Virus record (IMG/VR): IMGVR_UViG_2802429248_000008
Coordinates: 1-26,841 of that record
Length of the DNA stretch: 26,841 nt
Direction: 5' to 3' (one strand)
Origin: a virus
Taxonomy: Duplodnaviria; Heunggongvirae; Uroviricota; Caudoviricetes
The notes under the pieces were generated by a model. That model had not been told where the DNA came from and ran no database searches. It saw only the letters and a program-made list of their open reading frames with translations. This document shows positions 2,589 through 13,317 of this stretch, in pieces (position 1 is the stretch's first letter; every line of letters begins with the position of its first letter). The translations under genes and the position numbers were made by a program.

Positions 2589-2867
2589 ATGGCAAAAGTC
2601 CTGAACACACACGAACAGGCAGACTTTGAGCGTTTAGCAGCGTTCTATCCCTACCGCGATGAGCATGGGTTACCAGTACTTGAAGAAAGCCTGAAAGATT
2701 ACGCAAAGCGTACCAACCAAGCTGTTAACACAGTGAAAAGACAGGCTGACAGAGGTTCAATTCCCATCAACCAGGATGAAAAGAACTCAAGACGCACAGT
2801 AAATCTCTTCGCTCTTTTCCTGAAAACAATCAGGAGCGCAGAAAAATACGTGCAGATGACAAAATAA
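2589..2867 (+). CDS. Cox/Apl-like early regulator or excisionase (call by position only)
   Basis: 92-aa ORF, first gene of the rightward early operon, divergent from the repressor across the operator. No recognisable motif, so the call rests on synteny with P2 cox. Confidence 0.45.
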   Translation: MAKVLNTHEQADFERLAAFYPYRDEHGLPVLEESLKDYAKRTNQAVNTVKRQADRGSIPINQDEKNSRRTVNLFALFLKTIRSAEKYVQMTK

Positions 2868-2881
2868 CGAGGTGTCATTTT

Positions 2882-3220
2882 ATGCTGAAGCAACGCCGTA
2901 ATTTTCGTACCGGAACAGAACGCCACGCTAACCGTTTCACTACCAGTGCATCACGCAGCAACATCCGCTACAGCCTGAGTGATACACACGCAACGCCGGA
3001 TGGCTACCCAGTAAAACAAATCGGCGAGCACGCCTGGCTGATTGAGAAAGCTGGAATCGTGATCCACAAATGCCCACGCAATCCGTTTACCGGAAACCGC
3101 ATTTTTGCATTGAGCTGCGGCGACAATCAATTCGGGCAGGATTTCACATTATACGAAGCACTTCGCACGGTTGATCGTCTGCTTCGTGGGCAAAGTTTTA
3201 TTAAACAGGCTGATTTATAA
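2882..3220 (+). CDS. Hypothetical early protein
   Basis: 112-aa ORF, ATG 2882 preceded by GAGG; follows the cox-like gene by 14 nt. Confidence 0.5.
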   Translation: MLKQRRNFRTGTERHANRFTTSASRSNIRYSLSDTHATPDGYPVKQIGEHAWLIEKAGIVIHKCPRNPFTGNRIFALSCGDNQFGQDFTLYEALRTVDRLLRGQSFIKQADL

Positions 3221-3230
3221 CAGGTGCTTT

Positions 3231-3509
3231 ATGACCAAAGAGCATGCACAAGGTGTATTTATCCGTTTTATTGATTTTCGCGGTGAACTGTTATTACGCG
3301 CATCAGCCATTGACGGAGTTGTTCCATCCGAAAAAAACGCAGCTACTTACGTTTATCTGAACGGTACGCGCCTGACTGTGGAGCTTCCGTACCAGACCGT
3401 ACGAGAAATCATTAGCGAAGCTGAAAAGGCACGTCAGGTTAATGGCGATGAACCATATATCGAAATTATTTGTATGGATTCAGAAGCTGAAATCCAGAAG
3501 GCAGATTAA
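3231..3509 (+). CDS. Hypothetical early protein
   Basis: ATG 3231 preceded by AGGTG, in frame with track ORF 3171..3509; 92 aa. Confidence 0.5.
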   Translation: MTKEHAQGVFIRFIDFRGELLLRASAIDGVVPSEKNAATYVYLNGTRLTVELPYQTVREIISEAEKARQVNGDEPYIEIICMDSEAEIQKAD

Positions 3510-3519
3510 AGGGTGTGCG

Positions 3520-3762
3520 ATGGACAAAGAATATAAAGCTCTTGTCAATAAAGCACTTGAGCGTTTTTATTTTCGCCTAAACACATCAGGGGCCCAGGCA
3601 GAACACGCAGCCCATGATTCATTAGCAAGGGCAATCAGAAGCCTTTATGACGTGGCTTTTTACGCTGACGATTTGGATGCAATTAACGAACTTTCCGAAC
3701 TCATCTGTGCTGCAGAATGCGGAGAACACATTGAACCGTATAAACTGGGGAATATCGTATGA
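3520..3762 (+). CDS. Hypothetical early protein
   Basis: ATG 3520 preceded by GGGTG, in frame with track ORF 3442..3762; 80 aa. Confidence 0.5.
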   Translation: MDKEYKALVNKALERFYFRLNTSGAQAEHAAHDSLARAIRSLYDVAFYADDLDAINELSELICAAECGEHIEPYKLGNIV

Positions 3763-3896
3763 GCATATTTATGTCATGGCTTGTTCTGATTATTTCGGTG
3801 TTCTGCGCTATTGGCATTATGCGAATTATTCATTCAGTGAAAAAGATTGAGCGTTTTTCTCTGACGAATAACAGCACAAATAAAACACCAGATTAA
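3759..3896 (+). CDS. Small hydrophobic protein (45 aa, one predicted TM helix)
   Basis: Below the ORF-track size cutoff. ATG 3759 overlaps the upstream stop (ATGA). Translation MSIFMSWLVLIISVFCAIGIMRIIHSVKK... with stop TAA at 3894-3896. Confidence 0.3.
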   Translation: MSIFMSWLVLIISVFCAIGIMRIIHSVKKIERFSLTNNSTNKTPD

Positions 3897-3964
3897 ATAA
3901 GAAAACGTGAAAACCATCCGAATTAGCGGAGGCATTCACACACGTAAACAACGGAGATACAAAA

Positions 3965-4375
3965 ATGAACGCAAAAGAAAAAGGCATTGTAACTGCGCTA
4001 AAAAATATATCGAAGACCGCAAACAGAGCCATTCAGGATGCAACAAATGCAGGAATGATTGGGCCTGCCACCACGGCCATGATGATAGCAAGAGTAACCG
4101 CCGAAGCAGCCGAAATTATCGAAAAACAGGATGCTGAACTAACGGTTCTCAGAACACAACCAGTCACCGGACTGGATTTGTCTAACACCGGACGCCTTAT
4201 TTACACAATTGGCTCGGAGCTACAGCAATACACCATTATCGCCGGATTACAGGATAAATACCTGATCACTCCTCACCCCATAAGGGAATCAGAAATTCTG
4301 ACAAATCTCCGCCTGATAGAGCGTTCTCACGTCGCATTCATTGATGACGCACAGCGCACCGTATTTAACGCATAG
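3965..4375 (+). CDS. Hypothetical early protein
   Basis: 136-aa ORF, ATG 3965 preceded by GGAGA. Confidence 0.55.
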   Translation: MNAKEKGIVTALKNISKTANRAIQDATNAGMIGPATTAMMIARVTAEAAEIIEKQDAELTVLRTQPVTGLDLSNTGRLIYTIGSELQQYTIIAGLQDKYLITPHPIRESEILTNLRLIERSHVAFIDDAQRTVFNA

Positions 4376-4398
4376 GGTTACTGGACAAAGGGGGCGCA

Positions 4399-4602
4399 AT
4401 GGCAATTAAGCGATTTACCGTCGTTCGTTTCACTTCCAGAGGACGTGAATACGAAGTTGACGAACGGCTGATTAAAACGCTCGACCGTCACCGTTCGCAA
4501 CCTGACGCGCATCACATTTATCTCACTGACGACACTTACTTCTGCGCCACCAACGTGGTGCAGGTGAACCTTATCCGACAGGTACAGGAGTCACGCAGAT
4601 GA
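4399..4602 (+). CDS. Hypothetical small protein
   Basis: 67-aa ORF, ATG 4399 preceded by AAAGGGGG; stop overlaps the next start (ATGA). Confidence 0.5.
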   Translation: MAIKRFTVVRFTSRGREYEVDERLIKTLDRHRSQPDAHHIYLTDDTYFCATNVVQVNLIRQVQESRR

Positions 4603-4844
4603 CCATTCTGGACTACATCGCCGCCAATCCGGGTTGTAGCGGCGGAGAAATCGCCGCAGCACTGAATACCCCAACCACAGCCATTAATGCTGAGTTACGC
4701 CGACTCTGGCGCGACGGCTTAGTCATCAGAGAAGAACGCAAAACAGGCGGTCGGTTCTCTTACCAGGTAAACCCGATGCCGTTCGGGTGTGGCAATCCAC
4801 TTACTCACATGTTTAACCAGCTACTGAAGGAAGCCAGAGCATGA
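4599..4844 (+). CDS. Small winged-helix-like DNA-binding protein
   Basis: 81 aa; N-terminal MTILDYIAANPGCSGGEIAAALNTPTTAINAELRRLWRDGLV has an HTH-like pattern. Coupled by ATGA overlaps on both sides. Confidence 0.5.
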   Translation: MTILDYIAANPGCSGGEIAAALNTPTTAINAELRRLWRDGLVIREERKTGGRFSYQVNPMPFGCGNPLTHMFNQLLKEARA

Positions 4845-5140
4845 GCACCATCAACCACCAGGAACTACGCGAACTGGCGACTGACCTGCAACGAATGGCA
4901 ACGCATCAAAAATTACTGGCGTTTCGCGCAATGCTCTCGCCATCTTCCGTGCTGGCACTGCTGGATGAGCTGGAGCACGCCAGAACCATGGCTCCAGCCA
5001 TTCGCCTGACGCTCCATCATGAAATCGCTGATTTCTGCGCACCACTGGGTTCGCCTGGTGAACCAGAAACGCCGGAAGCAATGCAACGAGAGCTACTGCA
5101 ACGCATCGACAAGGTTTTTGATTTTTTCCTTAACCAGTAA
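4841..5140 (+). CDS. Hypothetical protein
   Basis: 99-aa ORF, ATGA-coupled to the upstream gene. Confidence 0.5.
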   Translation: MSTINHQELRELATDLQRMATHQKLLAFRAMLSPSSVLALLDELEHARTMAPAIRLTLHHEIADFCAPLGSPGEPETPEAMQRELLQRIDKVFDFFLNQ

Positions 5141-5151
5141 AGGACCGCGAT

Positions 5152-5355
5152 ATGAACAAAAAGACCTGGTTTCGCGCATACATGTGGGCGCTGGTATGCG
5201 TCCTCGTTTCTCTCATTCTGTATGCAGGACTACTCCCCCGAATGATTTCATCAGACAGCTCCTTCCTGGTATTGCTGGGCATTTTCATTGCCATGCTGTA
5301 CCCGGCAGGCGTTGTTCGCCTTTTCAGTAAGTACATCAAGGAAATCAAACAATGA
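5152..5355 (+). CDS. Small two-TM membrane protein, partner of the SPFH protein
   Basis: 67 aa with two hydrophobic segments (WALVCVLVSLILYAGLL and FLVLLGIFIAMLYPAGVV); AAAGGA RBS; stop overlaps the SPFH gene start (ATGA). Confidence 0.55.
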   Translation: MNKKTWFRAYMWALVCVLVSLILYAGLLPRMISSDSSFLVLLGIFIAMLYPAGVVRLFSKYIKEIKQ

Positions 5356-6182
5356 AGAAATTCAAACTCTTTCAGATTCTCCCGCTTTTTGCCGCCATCC
5401 TGCTGGTTGGCTGCGATCGCGTTGAGCCAGGTAATGTGGGCATCAAAGTCAACAAGCTGGGCGACGACAAAGGCGTTGGCGAAGTGGTTGGCGTTGGCCG
5501 CTACTGGACTGGCTGGAATACAGAGGTTTACATCTTCCCGACCTTCAAACAAATGAAGACCTACGATGAGCCGTTCAGCTTCCAGATGAGTGACGGCACA
5601 ACCATCGGCTATCACATCGGCGTGGCTTACAAGGTTGATCCATCCAAAGTTACCACAGTGTTTCAGACCTACCGCAAAGGCGTGGATGACATTACCGACA
5701 CTGACCTGCGCCAGAAGATCGCCGATGCACTCAACCGACTGGCCAGCAAAATGACCACCGATAAGTTTATCGACGGCGGTAAGTCTGAACTGCTGGATTC
5801 AGCACTTAAAGATATTCAGGAAGAGATGACCCCCATCGGCATTCAGGTCATGAGCCTCTCTTATGTCGGCAAACCGGAATATCCGCCAACCGTTATCGAC
5901 AGCATTAACGCCAAAGTCACGGCAAACCAGAAAACCCTGCAACGCGAACAGGAAGTCAAGCAACGCGAAGCTGAAGCCAACATGCTGCGCGCAGAAGCTG
6001 CCGGACAGGCCGATGCCATTCGCACAAAAGCCCAGGCTGAAGCCGACGCCATTCGTTTACGCGGCGAAGCTCTGCGCCAGAATCCCGGCGTCATGGAGCT
6101 GGAAGCGATTAACAAATGGAACGGCACGCTGCCGCAATACATGACCAGTAACACCGCTGTTCCGTTCGTTCCCGTGAAGTAA
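5352..6182 (+). CDS. SPFH/band-7 (prohibitin/HflKC-like) domain lipoprotein
   Basis: 276 aa; lipoprotein signal with lipobox LLVGC; band-7-like core followed by an Ala/Glu/Gln/Arg-rich coiled-coil (EQEVKQREAEANMLRAEAAGQADAIRTKAQAEADAIRLRGEALRQNP), the usual SPFH architecture. Confidence 0.8.
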   Translation: MKKFKLFQILPLFAAILLVGCDRVEPGNVGIKVNKLGDDKGVGEVVGVGRYWTGWNTEVYIFPTFKQMKTYDEPFSFQMSDGTTIGYHIGVAYKVDPSKVTTVFQTYRKGVDDITDTDLRQKIADALNRLASKMTTDKFIDGGKSELLDSALKDIQEEMTPIGIQVMSLSYVGKPEYPPTVIDSINAKVTANQKTLQREQEVKQREAEANMLRAEAAGQADAIRTKAQAEADAIRLRGEALRQNPGVMELEAINKWNGTLPQYMTSNTAVPFVPVK

Positions 6183-6237
6183 TGACACCCGGCCAGTGAA
6201 ACCGCTGGCCAATAAACAAAAAGCCAGAGGACAGAAC

Positions 6238-6384
6238 ATGCACAAAGCCTTTGAACGATGGATGCGTCAGCGTTACGGCAACCGCTACGACCTGACAAGA
6301 GATGCCGATGGCTACTACTGCCGCGAAATTGTGAAACGAATGTTTGAAGTGTGGTGCCACCACCGCGGTTTATACGCCGTGTAA
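6238..6384 (+). CDS. Hypothetical small protein (48 aa)
   Basis: ATG 6238 with GAGGA 7 nt upstream; the track's GTG 6196 start lies inside the hairpin ggccag...ctggcc at 6191-6210. Confidence 0.4.
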   Translation: MHKAFERWMRQRYGNRYDLTRDADGYYCREIVKRMFEVWCHHRGLYAV

Positions 6385-6411
6385 AGCACCACCGCTAACG
6401 AGGTAAAAAAT

Positions 6412-6972
6412 ATGCATAACTTCAAACTCAAACCAATGGGTACACCTGGTGTGGCTCCGGCACATGTAAAACCATGGACACAACAGGAAGATGAAATGCT
6501 TATCTCGCTTTATCCGGAGTGCAACACGCGCCAGATAACCGAACAAATTCAACGAACCCATGACGCAGTTATGCACCGACTTAGTTTTTTACGTGATCGT
6601 GGATTGATTGGTCGCAAGAAAAAGACTCTGAGTGCAAAGGAGATCGCCTTTCTCATTGAAAACCGCCACACCAGAACGGCGCAGGAACTGGCCGCCGAGG
6701 TGGGATGCACCCATCGCACCGTACAAGCGCACCTGAATAAACGTGGTTATAGCCTGCGAAAATGCGGAGAACTCCACCACCTGACCAGATACAGCGATCA
6801 CCTGGTGGAACTGGTGACTGAACTACGTGATGAGCAGCACATGACGTTCGCCATGATAGCAAAACACATTAATCACACACTGCAAATAAAAGTCACCACT
6901 CGTACAGCACGTTTTCTTTACGGTCGCCGCACCGCCGCCGACGCCGTGCTGTACGAGCTATTACCAAACTGA
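6412..6972 (+). CDS. Putative DNA-binding protein with three HTH-like repeats
   Basis: 186 aa, ATG 6412 preceded by GAGGT. Three segments of similar pattern (WTQQEDEMLISLYPECNTRQITEQIQRTHDAV; SAKEIAFLIENRHTRTAQELAAEVGCTHRTVQAHL; HLVELVTELRDEQHMTFAMIAKHINHTL). Function inferred from pattern only. Confidence 0.5.
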   Translation: MHNFKLKPMGTPGVAPAHVKPWTQQEDEMLISLYPECNTRQITEQIQRTHDAVMHRLSFLRDRGLIGRKKKTLSAKEIAFLIENRHTRTAQELAAEVGCTHRTVQAHLNKRGYSLRKCGELHHLTRYSDHLVELVTELRDEQHMTFAMIAKHINHTLQIKVTTRTARFLYGRRTAADAVLYELLPN

Positions 6973-7086
6973 GTAATCATCATGCACACACAAAAAAACC
7001 GCTTGCCATGCCGCAATCAGTCAGGTTACATTTCCGCTGCACCTCATAAAACGGGTGCCGGGATTCTCAACCTGCTGACAAACGAA

Positions 7087-7118
7087 GCGCACAACCGCGC
7101 CAGCGGTTTTTTTGTGCG
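7087..7118 (+). terminator. Terminator-like hairpin with a 7-T run
   Basis: Inner stem ccgc/gcgg (7095-7106) followed by TTTTTTT (7107-7113); outer arms cgcacaa/ttgtgcg (7088-7094 and 7112-7118). About 115 bp past the 6412-6972 gene. Confidence 0.45.
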
Positions 7119-7168
7119 TACTGTATTGCCACGTCTTTTTCGCATCAGAATTATGGTGGGGCGTACGG

Positions 7169-7200
7169 GGCCGACTTCGGTCGGGCCGGTTTCTTCGTTT
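7169..7200 (+). terminator. Second terminator-like hairpin with UUCG loop and U-rich tail
   Basis: ggccgac-ttcg-gtcgggcc at 7169-7187, then ggtttcttcgttt. Preceded by TTGCCA (7126-7131), a 17-nt spacer and AATTAT (7149-7154), a plausible promoter. Confidence 0.45.
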
Positions 7201-7295
7201 GCCGGTGTTGAGAACCCCGTACGTCTCGCCACCCCGAGATTCTCAACTCTGGTTGGTGAGTATCCAAAAACTCACAAACGAAGAGGCCAAACACC

Positions 7296-7526
7296 ATGGC
7301 AAACCGCAAACAGCACCGCGCTATCGCGGAGCGTCGTCACATCCAGACTGAAATCAACCGCAGACTTTTCCGCGCATCACGCGTCGCGCAGATCATGCAC
7401 ATCAATATGCTGCATGAGCGCAGCCACGCGCTATCGAACATCTATTCAGCCTCTATTTTCAGCTATCTGGCGGATGATCTGCGCGAGCTTCAGCGGCTCA
7501 TCCTGCAGCAAAACAAACTCCATTAA
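7296..7526 (+). CDS. Hypothetical protein, first gene after the noncoding junction
   Basis: 76-aa ORF, ATG 7296 with AAGAGG 9 nt upstream. Confidence 0.45.
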   Translation: MANRKQHRAIAERRHIQTEINRRLFRASRVAQIMHINMLHERSHALSNIYSASIFSYLADDLRELQRLILQQNKLH

Positions 7527-7598
7527 TTCTGGTTCCGGGCCTTTCCTGCACCTTGCGGCGGGAGGCCTTCGCACATCTGTAACAAGAGGATTGCCGCA

Positions 7599-7964
7599 AT
7601 GATTCTCGCCAACGACTTTCTTGAATACCTGCTCAACACAGAGCGCGATCTTGCCGTTCGCGTGCGTGACCGTTATGACATGTACCTGAAATCCCTGCCT
7701 GTACCGCAGCTCGCTGACGGAAAGATTGTTATTGATGGCCGCTACATGATTGACAGCCACGAGGGAAATTACAGGCTTTACCGCATTGAAGGCGGCACCC
7801 CGTCCGTTATTGGCATTTACCAGCGCCCATCCTCTGCGATCGTCGATGTGATTGCAGACAGCATCCGCATCACACATCGCTATGCCGACACAGAAGACAC
7901 CGTGCTGGAAATTCAGCGGCTGGCTGCCGTTTGCCGTGACACCCTGAACGGTATGACGAAGTAA
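7599..7964 (+). CDS. Hypothetical protein directly upstream of replication gene A
   Basis: 121-aa ORF, ATG 7599 with AAGAGGA RBS. Confidence 0.5.
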   Translation: MILANDFLEYLLNTERDLAVRVRDRYDMYLKSLPVPQLADGKIVIDGRYMIDSHEGNYRLYRIEGGTPSVIGIYQRPSSAIVDVIADSIRITHRYADTEDTVLEIQRLAAVCRDTLNGMTK

Positions 7965-7970
7965 ATCAGT

Positions 7971-10793
7971 ATGACGACAGAGTACATCAGGGACTGGCAA
8001 CAACCGCGCCACGCAGTAGGGCGTGAAGGAACGGGGATCCCCGCACCTGAATCCGCGCTTTCCTCCTGGCTGGATGCCTACCGGGCAGAGAACGAGCGCC
8101 GCCAGGAAAAGGCTGATGCGGTGTTCTCCGCCACGCCACTGGGCAACCTGATTAATAAAAGCCTGGACGCACAGGAAAAACAGGACAAAACCATCACTCT
8201 GGCAGGAGAAGCCAGAAGACAGGCACGCGGCGCGGTGGATGAAGCCATGGCCTCGCTGCGCCTGCTGCCGTCCTATCTGCGCGATCCGCTTATTCGCCAC
8301 CTCTCCTTCCTGCGCAAAAAACAGGAAGCCGATCGCCGGAAAGGCAAAAAGAGCTGGCAGGCAGAACGCTATGCACGCGGAACCCTGCGCAAGATATTCG
8401 ATCGCATTAACCGTGCCGACAGTCGCTGGCTGACACCGGGTTATCGCTCCCTTGCCGGACGCGAACGCCTGGACGATTTGCTTTACCTGCCGCAGCTCAA
8501 CAAACACCAGATACAGACGCTGGCCACCATGACGGCGGCGATGTTCAGCAGCACCTTCGAAAAACTCTGCGATGGCTTTGGCGCGACTGATGGTGAGCTG
8601 ACCATGGAGGTGGCACTGAAGGCGTATCAGATGCTGGCCCGCATGGCGTTACACCTGCACACCGTGCCGCCGCATTACGAAGCGCTGACAACAGACAAAG
8701 ACCGGAGGAACGAACCGGACACGGAGCTGCTGCCGGGCGCAATCCTTCGTCTGACCTGTGCGGAATGGTGGAAACGCAAACTGTGGCTGTTACGTTGCGA
8801 GTGGCGGGAAGAACAACTCCGTGCCGCCTGTCTGGTTTCCAGAAAAACATCGCCCTATCTGAGCCAGGACGCGTTAAGCGAGTTTCGCGCACAGCGCGAG
8901 AAAACACGCGATTTTCTGAAAAGTTTCATGCTGGAAAACGAAGACGGGTTCACGATTGATCTCGAGACAGTGTATTACGCGGGAGTAAGTAACCCGGTTC
9001 ACCGTAAGGCAGAAATGATGGCCACCATGAAGGGGCTGGAACTTCTGGCCGAAGCCCGTGGCGACAAAGCGGTGTTTCTGACTGTCACCTGCCCGTCAAA
9101 ATACCACGCCACAACAGAGAACGGTCATCCGAACCCCAGATGGAACGGGGCCACCATGCGCGACTCCAGCGATTACCTAGTTAACACGTTTTTTGCGGCG
9201 GTCCGCAAAAAACTGAACCGCGACGGTCTTCGCTGGTATGGCATCCGCACGGTGGAGCCTCACCATGACGGCACTGTGCACTGGCATATGATGGTCTTTG
9301 CACATCCGGAAGAAATCGACAGCATCGTGGCCATCACCCGCGATATTGCCATTCAGGAAGACCGCCACGAGCTGGGCAATGATATTACTCCGCGCTTTAA
9401 GGTGGAGTATGTCGACGGCTCAAAAGGCACACCGACCAGCTATATCGCCACCTACATCGGAAAAAACCTGGACAGCCGCGCCGTGGATGGCATCGACCCG
9501 AAAACGGGCAAGCCACGCGTTGACCACGAAACCGGAAAATCAATGGCCGAGAGCGTGGAGCGCGCCATCGGCTGGGCGCGCCTTCACCGCGTCCGCCAGT
9601 TCCAGTTCTTTGGCATCCCCTCCCGTCAGGTGTGGCGTGAACTGCGCCGCCTTGCCAGCCAGATGGCACGCAACCCGGAAGGCCCGCAACGGCTGAAGGA
9701 TGACGCAATGGATGCGGTACTCGCTGCCGCTGATGCCGGGTGTTTTGCCTCCTACATTGAAAAACAGGGTGGCGTACTTGTTCCACGCAAGGACTACCTG
9801 ATTCGCACCGCCTACGACCTCGCAGATGAGCTGAACGATTACGGCGAACAGGGCGTACAGATTTACGGGATCTGGTCACCACTCATCGGGGAATCCTCCC
9901 GTGTGTGCACGCACCCGGATAACTGGAAGCTGGTAAGACGTAAACCGGAACAGGAAGGTAGCGCCCACGAAAATGGTTTTGACCTTCAGGGCGGCCCTGC
10001 CGCCCCTTGGACCCGTGGCAATAACTGTCCCCGTGTACAGGAAACGGACAACAACGGGACAGAACAGCCGGAAGAACGGCCAGCACCGTGGCCGCAGCTT
10101 CCTGACGGCATTGAAGTGAACGAATGGATGCGCTCACTGAAACGGCACGAACGCCGGGCGCTGATGCGTTCGCTTCGTGACAAACAGGCAAAAAACAGCA
10201 GTGATGAAATGCAGAGCTGGACACAGAGCCGCAAACAGCAGCGGCCTTTGCCTGATAACCACGAATTACTCGCTAGAGAATGGCGGGAGTCTGCTGAATC
10301 TCTCGGCCTGCATATCGGTGAACAACAAATGCAGCACCTGTTACGGGGCGGCAGTCTGTACGTTGACGGCAGCATCATTGCACCGCAGGGATTTGAAATT
10401 GTACGCAAACCGGATACCCGCCCGGACAGCCGAATCACGCAGCTCTGGCAGCGCCTGAGCCGTAATCACGGTGTAAGCAGCACGGAGATCCGCCATAACC
10501 CGGTCGCCAGCTATCTGGCACAGCTGGGGGCATCAGACCCTGAAGCCGCCGCACGCCTGGCATCCACACTTCAGCAGGACCAGAACACCATGAAAACACC
10601 CGTTACCGTGCTTTCTGACATGCTGCGCGCCATCCGCGACGCAGAGCACGCACAGAGAATCAGTGAAACCACTGAACGCGCCCACCGCAAAGCAGACCTG
10701 CTGCGGGGTGGCCTGACCAGTGGAAACAAAAAACAGACAGAAACGGGACTCACGAATCCCGTAAATGAGCAAAAAACGCGCAGCGATATATGA
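7971..10793 (+). CDS. A: Rolling-circle replication initiator (P2 gpA family, HUH endonuclease), 940 aa with a long C-terminal extension
   Basis: HUH motif HHDGTVHWHMMVFAH and paired active-site tyrosines in SYIATYIGKN, characteristic of P2 A/phiX174 gpA-type initiators. About 290 C-terminal residues are low-complexity and Gln/Arg/Glu-rich. Confidence 0.85.
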   Translation: MTTEYIRDWQQPRHAVGREGTGIPAPESALSSWLDAYRAENERRQEKADAVFSATPLGNLINKSLDAQEKQDKTITLAGEARRQARGAVDEAMASLRLLPSYLRDPLIRHLSFLRKKQEADRRKGKKSWQAERYARGTLRKIFDRINRADSRWLTPGYRSLAGRERLDDLLYLPQLNKHQIQTLATMTAAMFSSTFEKLCDGFGATDGELTMEVALKAYQMLARMALHLHTVPPHYEALTTDKDRRNEPDTELLPGAILRLTCAEWWKRKLWLLRCEWREEQLRAACLVSRKTSPYLSQDALSEFRAQREKTRDFLKSFMLENEDGFTIDLETVYYAGVSNPVHRKAEMMATMKGLELLAEARGDKAVFLTVTCPSKYHATTENGHPNPRWNGATMRDSSDYLVNTFFAAVRKKLNRDGLRWYGIRTVEPHHDGTVHWHMMVFAHPEEIDSIVAITRDIAIQEDRHELGNDITPRFKVEYVDGSKGTPTSYIATYIGKNLDSRAVDGIDPKTGKPRVDHETGKSMAESVERAIGWARLHRVRQFQFFGIPSRQVWRELRRLASQMARNPEGPQRLKDDAMDAVLAAADAGCFASYIEKQGGVLVPRKDYLIRTAYDLADELNDYGEQGVQIYGIWSPLIGESSRVCTHPDNWKLVRRKPEQEGSAHENGFDLQGGPAAPWTRGNNCPRVQETDNNGTEQPEERPAPWPQLPDGIEVNEWMRSLKRHERRALMRSLRDKQAKNSSDEMQSWTQSRKQQRPLPDNHELLAREWRESAESLGLHIGEQQMQHLLRGGSLYVDGSIIAPQGFEIVRKPDTRPDSRITQLWQRLSRNHGVSSTEIRHNPVASYLAQLGASDPEAAARLASTLQQDQNTMKTPVTVLSDMLRAIRDAEHAQRISETTERAHRKADLLRGGLTSGNKKQTETGLTNPVNEQKTRSDI

Positions 10794-10838
10794 AGCGCGC
10801 ACAAAACAGGCAAAAACGGGATTTCAGAATCCCGTAAA
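10741..10838. promoter_or_regulatory. Two 25-bp imperfect dyad repeats flanking the parM upstream region (candidate parC centromere/operator, or A-associated site)
   Basis: aaacgggactcacgaatcccgtaaa (10741-10765, inside the 3' end of A) and aaacgggatttcagaatcccgtaaa (10814-10838). Each has inverted acggga/tcccgt arms; the second forms a perfect 8-bp stem (acgggatt/aatcccgt). AT-rich stretch and RBS follow before parM. Confidence 0.5.
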
Positions 10839-10869
10839 CGATTAATTAATCAACATAAGGAAAAGCGAC

Positions 10870-11829
10870 ATGAAAATTTGTATCGACGACGGCTCCACCA
10901 ACATCAAGCTGGCATGGACTGAGAACAGCGAACGCCGCAACGCCATCAGCCCGAACAGCTTCAAGTCGGAATGGTCTGCGCCGTTCGGTGGCTCGCAGCC
11001 TGCGAACTACATGCTTGATGGCGTGCGCTATGGTTTTGATCCGGTCAGCGATCGCTTTGTCCAGACGACCGACACGCAATACCAGTACAGCGATGTGAAT
11101 GTAATCGCCATTCACCACGCGCTGGTCAAATCAGGCATCACACCACAGGAGGTGGATGTGGTTGTCACCCTGCCACTGAGCGAGTATTTCGACACAAACG
11201 CACAGCCGGACATGGCCAACATCAACCGCAAAAAAGCGAACGTTATGCGCCCGGTGGAGTACCAGAACGGTGAGGCATTCACTATCCGTAACGTGCGGGT
11301 TATGCCTGAATCCATTCCGGCTGGCTTTAAAGCACTGGCTGACATGAGTCCGTTTGAATCCCTGCTGATTGTGGATTTAGGCGGAACCACGCTGGATGTG
11401 GCAAAGGTTCAGGGACAACTGGCAGGTATCAGCCAGGTGTTTTGCGATCCACACGTAGGCGTTTCCCTGATGGCCGATGCCGTACTGTCGGTGATGGCCA
11501 CTAACGGTATGCGTACCAGTCACCACATCGCCAATACCATTATCGAACATCGCCATGATGAAGCCTGGCTGCGCCAGCACATCCACAATGACGCGCATTA
11601 CAACAGCCTGATGGCGGTTATTCGTGAAAAGGAAGAAACACTGAAACAACGCGTGATCCGCGCGCTGGCGGGTTTTTCGGGTTACGGGCGGGTGATGGTT
11701 GTCGGTGGAGGGGCGGAGATTGTGGCACCCGCTATCCGCGAAGCCTGCGGAGTTAATGCGACTTTCATCGCGGACGGGGTGCCACAGTTTGCTCTGGTTA
11801 ATGGGCTGTACGCAATGGACAAGGAGTAA
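10870..11829 (+). CDS. parM: ParM/StbA-family actin-like partition ATPase
   Basis: 319 aa. N-terminal MKICIDDGSTNIKLAW, plus HHAL, NRKKAN, VMPESIPAG, LLIVDLGGTTLD, VGGGAEI and LVNGLY, co-linear with plasmid R1 ParM as I recall it. Confidence 0.88.
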   Translation: MKICIDDGSTNIKLAWTENSERRNAISPNSFKSEWSAPFGGSQPANYMLDGVRYGFDPVSDRFVQTTDTQYQYSDVNVIAIHHALVKSGITPQEVDVVVTLPLSEYFDTNAQPDMANINRKKANVMRPVEYQNGEAFTIRNVRVMPESIPAGFKALADMSPFESLLIVDLGGTTLDVAKVQGQLAGISQVFCDPHVGVSLMADAVLSVMATNGMRTSHHIANTIIEHRHDEAWLRQHIHNDAHYNSLMAVIREKEETLKQRVIRALAGFSGYGRVMVVGGGAEIVAPAIREACGVNATFIADGVPQFALVNGLYAMDKE

Positions 11830-11833
11830 ACCA

Positions 11834-12145
11834 ATGACGACACCAACCAGACGGATAAGTTTCTATCTGAAGCCCGCCGCCGTCAAGAACGAAGGCGAAG
11901 CATGCGCCTGGCTGGACAGCCTTACACCAGAAGCCCGCAAAAGCGGCCAACGCGTGGCTTTTCTGGCCGGGCTGGCACTTCTGAAAATGAATCCGGCAGA
12001 GGCTTACCGACTGGCTGCATGGGCTGACGATGAGGCGTTATCGGTGACACAAACCAGGACAGAACGCCCCGTGTCACAGCCAGTACCAACCGCACAGATA
12101 ACCAGTCAGATGGCAGGGAATATCCGGGCATTATTTCCTGAATGA
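11834..12145 (+). CDS. parR: ParR-like centromere-binding adaptor
   Basis: 103 aa, AAGGAG RBS, starts 4 nt after the parM stop. RRISFYLKP...DSLTPEARKSGQRVAFLAGLALLKMNP parallels the R1 ParR N-terminal region (RTIAFKLNP...DSIPQGERSRLNRAALTAGLALY) from memory. Confidence 0.7.
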   Translation: MTTPTRRISFYLKPAAVKNEGEACAWLDSLTPEARKSGQRVAFLAGLALLKMNPAEAYRLAAWADDEALSVTQTRTERPVSQPVPTAQITSQMAGNIRALFPE

Positions 12146-12205
12146 CGAATTTGACGGCTTTTAATTTTATCGGGGTGCACTGTCGCCCCGCACGAGGAAA
12201 ACACG

Positions 12206-12730
12206 ATGAAAAAATACGAATACATGCTAATGAAAGAAGCACTGCGGGCTGGTCTGGCTCCCTGTCCTGTATCCGTAGAAGCTGTTGTTGGGAACACGAT
12301 TTTCCGAACGCTGCGAAATCGCGTATCCGTGAAGATGATTCACCAACCACCCAAATCTACCAGCATGATCTATCTGCCGCTGCCCGAGGCTATCAAACTT
12401 ATGCGTTCGCTGAAATTTGCGATTTGGATGCAGACACAGCTCAACAAAGCGGTGCAAAACACCTTCGTTAAGAAACTGATGCCGGAGCTTGCTGCCAGAT
12501 GTGCAAAATGTACCAGACCAGCACTTCAATTTGATCTGTCATTGATTCAACAAGCTACGGAGGCAGAACTGTACCGCCTGTCACCTCTCCATGATGCTCA
12601 CACGGAAGCCTCAGAAATGTTCCGGCTCATGTTTCAATTTAATTTTGCCGTTCGACGCACACGCGTTCAGGTCAATCGCATGATGCAGGCGCAGGAAGAG
12701 CTGACGCAACACAAAGGAGGCAACCAGTGA
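12206..12730 (+). CDS. Hypothetical protein (174 aa), hotspot cargo
   Basis: ATG 12206 with GAGGAAAA RBS; stop overlaps the next gene's GTG start (GTGA). No recognisable motif. Confidence 0.5.
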   Translation: MKKYEYMLMKEALRAGLAPCPVSVEAVVGNTIFRTLRNRVSVKMIHQPPKSTSMIYLPLPEAIKLMRSLKFAIWMQTQLNKAVQNTFVKKLMPELAARCAKCTRPALQFDLSLIQQATEAELYRLSPLHDAHTEASEMFRLMFQFNFAVRRTRVQVNRMMQAQEELTQHKGGNQ

Positions 12731-13317
12731 GCAAGATTGACTATCAGGCATTACGCGAACGTTATTCACCTGCGCCAGTACCGAAATGCCCTATTTGCGG
12801 CGAGGAAATGTCAATTCAGCGAATATCTGGAGCACAGGTTGTTTATGCCTGCTCCGGTTATGGTGATGATGGAGATTTCAAAATTGGTCGAACTCTTGCC
12901 GACGAACATTATGAAAAATCACGCGTAACAGTGTTGGATGTCGGGGATCCTGAAGTATTGGCGCTACTTGATTGGCTGGAAACTAAAGACAACCGAATCG
13001 CTGAACTGGAAAAAATCGCCACTGACTATGCACTTAAATTCCAGAAAGCACAGGACGCATTAAAGTATGCCGCTTTGCTGCATAGCCGGACGGCGCAACA
13101 AACCAATAATTTTGCAGTATCGCTTCCGGACATAAGCGAATATTTCATTAATGACGTATTTCAGCCCTTGCGATACGAGCGGGATGTTGAAAGAGCCATC
13201 ATAAAGGCTGGCGGAAAAGCATTGTGGCAGGAGAAACACGAGGACAGAACGCATCAGTCCTGCGATGTAAATTGTGGATGGTTTAGCCCACTGACGACAG
13301 ATAAAAATAACACCTGA
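12727..13317 (+). CDS. Hypothetical protein with N-terminal zinc-ribbon-like motif and central coiled-coil (196 aa)
   Basis: GTG 12727 with AAGGAGG 9 nt upstream. CPICGEEM...YACSGYG cysteine cluster; coiled-coil segment LALLDWLETKDNRIAELEKIATDYALKFQKAQDALKYAALL; N-terminal IDYQALRE is reminiscent of Ead/Ea22-like prophage proteins (weak recollection). Confidence 0.5.
   Translation: MSKIDYQALRERYSPAPVPKCPICGEEMSIQRISGAQVVYACSGYGDDGDFKIGRTLADEHYEKSRVTVLDVGDPEVLALLDWLETKDNRIAELEKIATDYALKFQKAQDALKYAALLHSRTAQQTNNFAVSLPDISEYFINDVFQPLRYERDVERAIIKAGGKALWQEKHEDRTHQSCDVNCGWFSPLTTDKNNT

Follow-up and report, generated by a model that had tools for sequence, protein, structure and literature searches.

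Among the closest described systems is the parMRC (stbAB) locus of the plasmids R1 and R100, in which repeats, parM and parR follow each other in this order. Here we analyze a cassette with the same gene order in a 26,841-nucleotide (nt) stretch of viral DNA, which we call the window (positions 1 to 26,841 of the IMG/VR record IMGVR_UViG_2802429248_000008, Caudoviricetes). The element is a P88-like (Xuanwuvirus) temperate prophage of the P2 family in E. coli; the host element of the cassette is an integrating phage, while R1 and R100 are plasmids. The cassette follows the replication gene A and comprises parM, which encodes an actin-like segregation ATPase, parR, which encodes a ParR/StbB-type adaptor, and two repeats upstream of parM, which are a candidate parC. 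We think it reasonably probable that the cassette is a functional type II ParM/ParR/parC partition module of the P88-like backbone, and that it would partition the transient circular form of the phage genome.

Two described systems provide a precedent for actin-type loci in integrating elements. The srpMRC locus of the SXT/R391 integrative and conjugative elements (ICEs) is a partition system of the actin type whose host element is integrated yet also occurs as a replicating circle. The locus is expressed together with the mobility genes, not constitutively, and it stabilizes excised SXT/R391 as well as a test plasmid (PMC4489591). SrpM and SrpR are, however, only distantly related to ParM and ParR, and their host element is conjugative and not a phage. 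The AlpAC/alpS system of the Corynebacterium prophage CGP3 likewise combines, in an integrated prophage, an actin-like filament protein with a DNA-binding adaptor. The adaptor binds upstream of its own operon, AlpAC links circular CGP3 DNA to filaments, and both AlpA and AlpC are induced early and are needed if CGP3 is to replicate efficiently (PMC4446434). This system differs in that its filament protein belongs to another actin-like family, its host is Gram-positive and the role reported for it is in efficient replication instead of segregation. A third relative is found in the P1-like phage-plasmid D6, whose StbA-type ParM is 47.5% identical to the ParM of the window; D6 is a 91-kb plasmid prophage, whereas the element in the window integrates.

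The cassette itself is already annotated and published, and its identification is not new. P88, the Citrobacter phage PhiSM, Xuanwuvirus P884B11 and the Sakai prophage Sp13 have it in the same position after A, and they differ from the window only in the parR allele and in the hotspot cargo downstream. Its genes are annotated as ParM or partition protein in P88 and PhiSM, and as stbA or plasmid partition protein in Sp13. In E. coli prophages the Prokaryotic Genome Annotation Pipeline names them 'plasmid segregation protein ParM' and 'plasmid partitioning/stability family protein'. The two proteins belong to PHROG families 691 and 2515, both called 'partition protein', and ParR matches the 103-position profile of family 2515 from end to end. 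Rousset et al. 2022 reported a putative system for partition in about a quarter of the P2-like phages, in the slot between gpA and gpQ, which in the P2-like phages of E. coli is a known hotspot of anti-phage systems (PMC9122126).

The parM gene (10870-11829, plus strand) encodes a protein of 319 amino acids (aa), which matches the Pfam profiles StbA_N (E 7.7e-82) and ParM C-terminal domain (E 1.4e-68). Residues 2-316 align with residues 2-318 of R1 ParM (PDB 1mwk) with an E value of 2e-92, and the two proteins are 46.5% identical over their full length. The alignment shows that all nucleotide-binding motifs are kept, namely DDGSTNIK (phosphate-1), MPESIPAG (catalytic), DLGGTTLD (phosphate-2) and GGGAE (adenosine). 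A search of NCBIfam gave no passing match; the score with the ParM equivalog PRK13917 was 20.5 bits at a cut-off of 417, which indicates that the protein belongs to a different ParM subfamily. Reading the sequence next to that of R100, we found the Shine-Dalgarno sequence AAGGA of parM at positions 10857-10861 (plus strand). It sits within the motif CATAAGGA, which is common to the parM leader of R100; the leaders of the phage cassette and of R1/R100 also have AAAAC-rich repeats in common.

Pairwise comparison of five E. coli copies gave ratios of nonsynonymous to synonymous substitution rates (dN/dS) of 0.03-0.16 for parM, and the gene is under strong purifying selection. It is present at full length, with 96.8-100% identity, in 1279 of the 1303 E. 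coli genomes that carry it (98%). Damaged copies do occur: ParM of phage 503458 is split into four pieces, and the protein clusters P0006, P0009 and P0017 are truncated.

The parR gene (11834-12145, plus strand) encodes a protein of 103 aa with a match to Pfam Plasmid_stab_B (E 1.6e-24), the family to which ParR of R1/R100 also belongs. Its first ATG (11834) is separated by 4 nt from the TAA stop codon of parM (11827-11829). A search of the PDB with the single ParR sequence gave no match, and a family profile built from ParR and seven relatives matched ParR of pB171 (2jd3) with an E value of 4.3e-15. The AlphaFold2 model of the ParR monomer, with a mean predicted local distance difference test score of 57 and a predicted template modeling score of 0.28, was too poor for a fold search.

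A comparison of 33 ParR alleles divides the protein into three parts. Residues 1-67 are the conserved N-terminal DNA-binding domain with the nearly invariant strand RRISFYLKP, a linker over residues 68-95 is hypervariable, and conservation returns at the C-terminal tip NIRALFPE, where N96, I97, F101 and P102 are invariant. In an alignment that includes ParRs from plasmids, an ICE and R100, N96 is again invariant, and a hydrophobic residue is kept four or five positions further on. The window ParR shares the N-terminal strand and the N-x-x-x-L/F tip with R1/R100, but it is shorter than the other ParRs, that of R100 included, and has no counterpart of one of their helices. In the R1 system, as studied by Gayathri and colleagues, the C-terminal region of ParR is reportedly the ParM-binding peptide. 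A conserved DNA-binding domain and a conserved tip, joined by a linker that is free to vary, are what one would expect if the protein depends on DNA binding as well as on the capture of ParM.

The variability of parR is much larger than that of parM. In roughly half of the genomes the DNA of parR shows just 60-80% identity, and the ParR proteins in the databases form dozens of clusters with 52 to 96% identity. Between allele classes the synonymous divergence (dS) is 0.06-0.10 in parM and 0.75-0.88 in the N-terminal domain of parR. This roughly ten-fold jump points to a recombination breakpoint near parR codon 18; the boundary of the variable gpA-gpQ hotspot seems to lie inside parR.

Upstream of parM we found two direct repeats of 42 nt each, 81% identical and 73 bp apart, which straddle the stop codon of gene A. 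Repeat 1 (10727-10768, plus strand; dyad 10743-10762) is inside the last codons of gene A; repeat 2 (10800-10841, plus strand; dyad 10816-10835) ends 28 nt before the parM start. Each contains an exact ACGGGA-N8-TCCCGT dyad, and these are the only two exact matches in the window. The repeats are nearly invariant over five E. coli copies with divergent parR alleles. The corresponding region of R100 is built differently, with ten A/C-rich direct 11-bp iterons around a core that contains a TTGATT-16-TAAACT promoter; no comparable promoter was found between the phage repeats, and the first of them is within a coding region. The AAAAC core of the R100 parC iterons is also found here, and nowhere else in the window than at positions 10725-10840 are there four AAAAC within 116 nt. 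A set of five NAAAC[AG][GC] motifs is in 10.5-bp phase (R 0.92, p ~0.015), an observation made post hoc on five sites, which is a hint only.

We considered two other readings of the repeats and of the parR alleles and rejected both. The first is that the parR alleles switch the specificity for the centromere. Since parC is almost unchanged across the allele classes, the alleles are not new centromere specificities; the N-terminal strand of ParR is the same as well, and the variation is in the linker. The second is that the dyads serve mainly as terminators on the minus strand, on which both do score as intrinsic terminators (stem, 8 bp; loop, 4 nt; T-rich tail). The similarity between the repeats, however, runs over 42 nt, past the stems, and the counterparts in Plesiomonas keep two copies with a spacing of 72 bp yet form weak hairpins. 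Furthermore, the portal operon already has a terminator-like site downstream (13333-13313). The dyads might in addition stop antisense transcription from entering the early operon.

From the letters alone, the earlier note on this DNA had proposed that a P2-like prophage has a complete parMRC-type cassette in its A-to-cos slot, and this identification has the support of every profile and alignment test. The 319-aa ATPase with its phosphate and adenosine motifs and the 103-aa adaptor starting 4 nt later were both recovered in the searches against the ParM/StbA and ParR/StbB families, with the nucleotide-binding residues kept. The two upstream dyad repeats, given there as 25 bp, turned out to be longer.

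The surroundings of the cassette are those of a P2-like prophage. The segment that runs from the end of A through the cassette is, at the nucleotide level, 94.7-98.4% identical to P88, PhiR44_2, PhiSM, P884B11, Chuche and others, and 99.9% identical to prophages in E. coli chromosomes. The window contains the P2-type integrase, repressor, A, portal, terminase and capsid genes. The tyrosine integrase (1142-2284) and the repressor (2184-2528) are on the minus strand, and the early genes, A, parM and parR among them, run uninterrupted on the plus strand from about 2589 to 13317. Next come, on the minus strand, the portal and terminase genes. The order in the slot is A, parM, parR, two small open reading frames (ORFs) and the portal gene on the opposite strand. 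Gene A (7971-10793, plus strand), the rolling-circle replication initiator (940 aa; Pfam Phage_GPA, E 1e-129), is on the same strand as the cassette and overlaps repeat 1 with its 3' end. The Pfam domain spans only residues 179-503 of A and leaves long N- and C-terminal parts without assignment; in other parMR-bearing P2-like phages the A proteins have 785 to 946 aa.

Some neighbors of the cassette were also analyzed. The first ORF downstream of parR (12206-12730) encodes a 174-aa protein without a match in Pfam, PHROG or PADLOC. It overlaps by 4 nt with the second (12727-13317), which encodes an Ead/Ea22-like protein (E in the range of 1e-32). A nearly identical prophage has a gene for a YafO-family toxin in place of this cargo. 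Further upstream in the early operon, positions 5352-6182 encode an SPFH/Band 7 family protein (E 5.7e-31).

The same arrangement is found in other genera. The nearest ParMs with less than 90% identity are from Plesiomonas (62%), Hafnia (62% by BLASTP, 61.3% by MAFFT), Serratia (58%) and Enterobacter (53%). In all four genera parM is followed by a Plasmid_stab_B gene, and the pair is part of a P2-like prophage, with gene A on one side and the portal gene on the other. A neighbor-joining tree places the phage-borne ParMs in two subclades, each of which is recovered in 200 of 200 bootstrap replicates. The union of the two subclades is recovered in only 91 of 200; this does not establish that the phage-borne ParMs all have one origin, and from these sequences one ancient acquisition or two are possible.

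Repeats are present upstream of the cassette in four of the five phage lineages. The prophages of E. coli and Plesiomonas have two direct copies 72-73 bp apart, the first of which overlaps the end of A in both, while those of Serratia and Enterobacter have one long inverted repeat pair upstream of parM. No repeats were detected upstream of parM in Hafnia, which suggests that the Hafnia centromere, if there is any, is elsewhere; the Hafnia prophage has an additional ORF of 167 aa between A and parM (7453-8001 of the Hafnia locus). In Plesiomonas shigelloides the P2-like prophage with parMR is a phage-sized contig of its own (WEKF01000002.1, 32,167 bp), which ends about 140 bp past the integrase gene at the expected attachment site. 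This suggests that the sequenced culture contained a mixture of excised and integrated forms, or an episome. Outside of phages, ParM-ParR pairs with about 50% identity are present in the chromosomes of Dickeya (8001-9373 of the locus) and Mangrovibacter (8001-9361 of the locus). One of these pairs is in an ICE-like region with TraG and TraU, and the other is next to Rep3, ParAB and UmuDC, as in an integrated plasmid.

In E. coli the cassette is very common: parM is present in 1303 of 5426 complete genomes (24%). The earlier note had considered a type II segregation system in such an element unexpected. Given this frequency, the existing annotations in P88, PhiSM and Sp13, the PHROG names, the published survey (PMC9122126) and the precedents in SXT/R391 (PMC4489591) and CGP3 (PMC4446434), this judgment cannot be upheld. 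Among 50,697 phage records the ParM family to which the protein belongs is found only in P88-like phages and in D6, which means that P2 and 186 have no ParM of this kind.

Of the 1443 places at which complete E. coli genomes contain parM, all but two are chromosomal. The near-identical matches from the plasmid collection are prophages within large plasmids or mis-assigned replicons, with one exception. This exception, pZ1323PEC0009-2 (NZ_CP148288.1), is a whole P88-like genome of 34,461 bp, which was deposited as a circular plasmid. It comes from an E. coli isolate from a cat and has structural genes as well as int, A and parMR. The record could represent a genuine episome, or else phage DNA that was replicating after spontaneous induction. 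A 26.8-kb 'plasmid' match from Shigella boydii was rejected as a plasmid, because it is a linear prophage fragment riddled with insertion sequences.

Next to the genomic location we consider the expression context. A strict scan for sigma-70 promoters between 10400 and 13800 found no site. In a relaxed consensus scan the best match was 7/12 in the phage copies from E. coli, Serratia and Enterobacter, and the Plesiomonas copy had no qualifying match; the copies from R100, an ICE and plasmid-like DNA reached 8-9/12. The consensus scan recognized no autoregulated promoter embedded in parC, and there is no terminator-like site on the plus strand between A and parM. Since no promoter of its own is recognized and no terminator follows A, we infer that the cassette is expressed with the early replication operon, from which it is probably transcribed mainly by read-through.

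These data lead us to the following model, in which the cassette acts as a partition module for the circular phage genome. Dimers of ParR would bind the two dyad-containing repeats around the gene A stop codon, and the conserved tip of ParR would capture the ends of ATP-ParM filaments. Growth of a filament between two ParR-parC complexes would then drive sister DNA circles apart. Nearly all copies are integrated, which rules out stable plasmid maintenance, and the substrate would therefore have to be a transient circle. This extrachromosomal phage circle, and not the integrated prophage, would be available after infection and before integration, or after excision during A-driven replication. 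A circular form is indeed available in a prophage with the cassette, since Sp13 forms circles in untreated cells and about 30-fold more of them after mitomycin C (PMC2669165). The benefit would be that both daughter cells obtain a copy in the transient episomal phases, and abortive lysogeny and loss after spontaneous excision would become rarer as a result. The sequences show homology, intact motifs, purifying selection, conserved position and chromosomal residence; that ParR binds the repeats, when the cassette is expressed, which DNA it acts on and how the phage benefits are inferred.

A more far-reaching version, which we put forward tentatively, is that the cassette is not hotspot cargo at all. 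It may instead be a long-conserved extension of the replication module, present in two P2-like lineages and at least five enterobacterial genera. It would be expressed with gene A, and it would partition the monomer circles that A generates to both daughters of a cell that divides before integration or after spontaneous excision.

Several points weigh against the partition model. P2 and 186, like most other P2-like phages, get by without the cassette. The candidate parC has only two clear sites, whereas that of R1 has ten iterons. The Hafnia copy, for which no upstream repeats were detected, does have an 8/12 promoter match, and the promoter argument as a whole is a consensus scan, which is able to miss real promoters. 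Replication of the P2 type produces many circles in a cell that is bound to lyse, and partition in such a cell has no inheritance benefit. Finally, the literature searched on P88, Xuanwuvirus, ECs2634 and ParM in P2-like phages yielded no functional study.

In a different role, AlpAC-like filaments would move or spread the replicating circles to favorable sites in the lytic cycle and thereby raise the efficiency of replication or packaging, and they would play no part in inheritance. Packaging in P2-type phages starts from monomeric circles, and many separate circles would thus be present. The position of the cassette at the end of the early replication operon, with no promoter of its own, fits expression during replication, and the early induction of AlpA and AlpC and their requirement in CGP3 replication (PMC4446434) are in line with such a function. 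A repurposed filament system for genome positioning, as the earlier note had suggested, is possible. However, the ParM of the window is close to plasmid-partition ParMs, as its identity to R1 ParM shows, and not to AlpC, and most P2-like phages replicate well without the cassette. Furthermore, Sp13, which is devoid of most morphogenetic genes and unable to make particles (PMC2669165), retains an intact cassette. Because of the similarity to true partition ParMs and of the intact cassette in this defective prophage, we favor partition in an episomal phase and consider a lytic organizer rather unlikely.

A stable phage-plasmid lifestyle, in which the prophage is kept as a low-copy plasmid in lysogens, was raised by the earlier note and corresponds to the plasmid maintenance guessed by Rousset et al. 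2022 (PMC9122126). The circular record of pZ1323PEC0009-2 speaks for it, and so does the fact that a related ParM serves the true phage-plasmid D6. Phage-plasmids of the P1, D6 and N15 type are extrachromosomal in lysogens, but 1441 of 1443 copies of parM are chromosomal, and the window has an integrase and a repressor. The lone circular record could be replicating phage DNA, as mentioned above, and the other small 'plasmid' match is the linear fragment from S. boydii. As a steady state this lifestyle is contradicted by the counts, which largely refute it, and we regard it as improbable.

It is also very improbable that the cassette is cargo for lysogenic conversion, with ParR/parC or ParM disturbing incoming plasmids or phages by partition incompatibility or exclusion, the latter also an idea of the earlier note. 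Such a role would resemble that of other genes in the gpA-gpQ hotspot. The slot is a known anti-phage hotspot (PMC9122126) and ParR is highly polymorphic, and both points speak for it. Yet ParM, ParR and the two downstream ORFs have no match in PADLOC, which leaves exclusion without support, and the variation of ParR is in the linker and not in the DNA-binding strand. The differences of parC and of the ParR tip from those of R1/R100 make a cross-reaction with IncF plasmids unlikely, and the cassette has remained fixed beside A over deep divergence, unlike hotspot cargo. That the cassette is an inert, plasmid-derived passenger without current function is hardly credible; the truncated or frameshifted copies mentioned above (phage 503458; clusters P0006, P0009 and P0017) would fit this view, but the low dN/dS of parM, its full length in 98% of the carriers, the intact motifs and the position conserved across genera contradict it.

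To the published annotations the present analysis adds the purifying selection on parM, the conserved ends and hypervariable linker of ParR, the same slot in four other genera, and a comparison of phage with plasmid copies in their promoter and terminator context, which in its promoter part holds with Hafnia (8/12) set apart. About a quarter of E. coli genomes carry an actin-like partition module chromosomally, in a P2-like prophage, and this raises the question of what its role is for an integrating phage. If the module partitions the transient circle, a segregation step would be added to the life cycle of integrating phages, and what is known from SXT/R391 and CGP3 would be extended to a very common family of enterobacterial phages. 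The line between prophages and plasmids would be further blurred, and a widespread, so far unrecognized stage in the life cycles of temperate phages would come into view.

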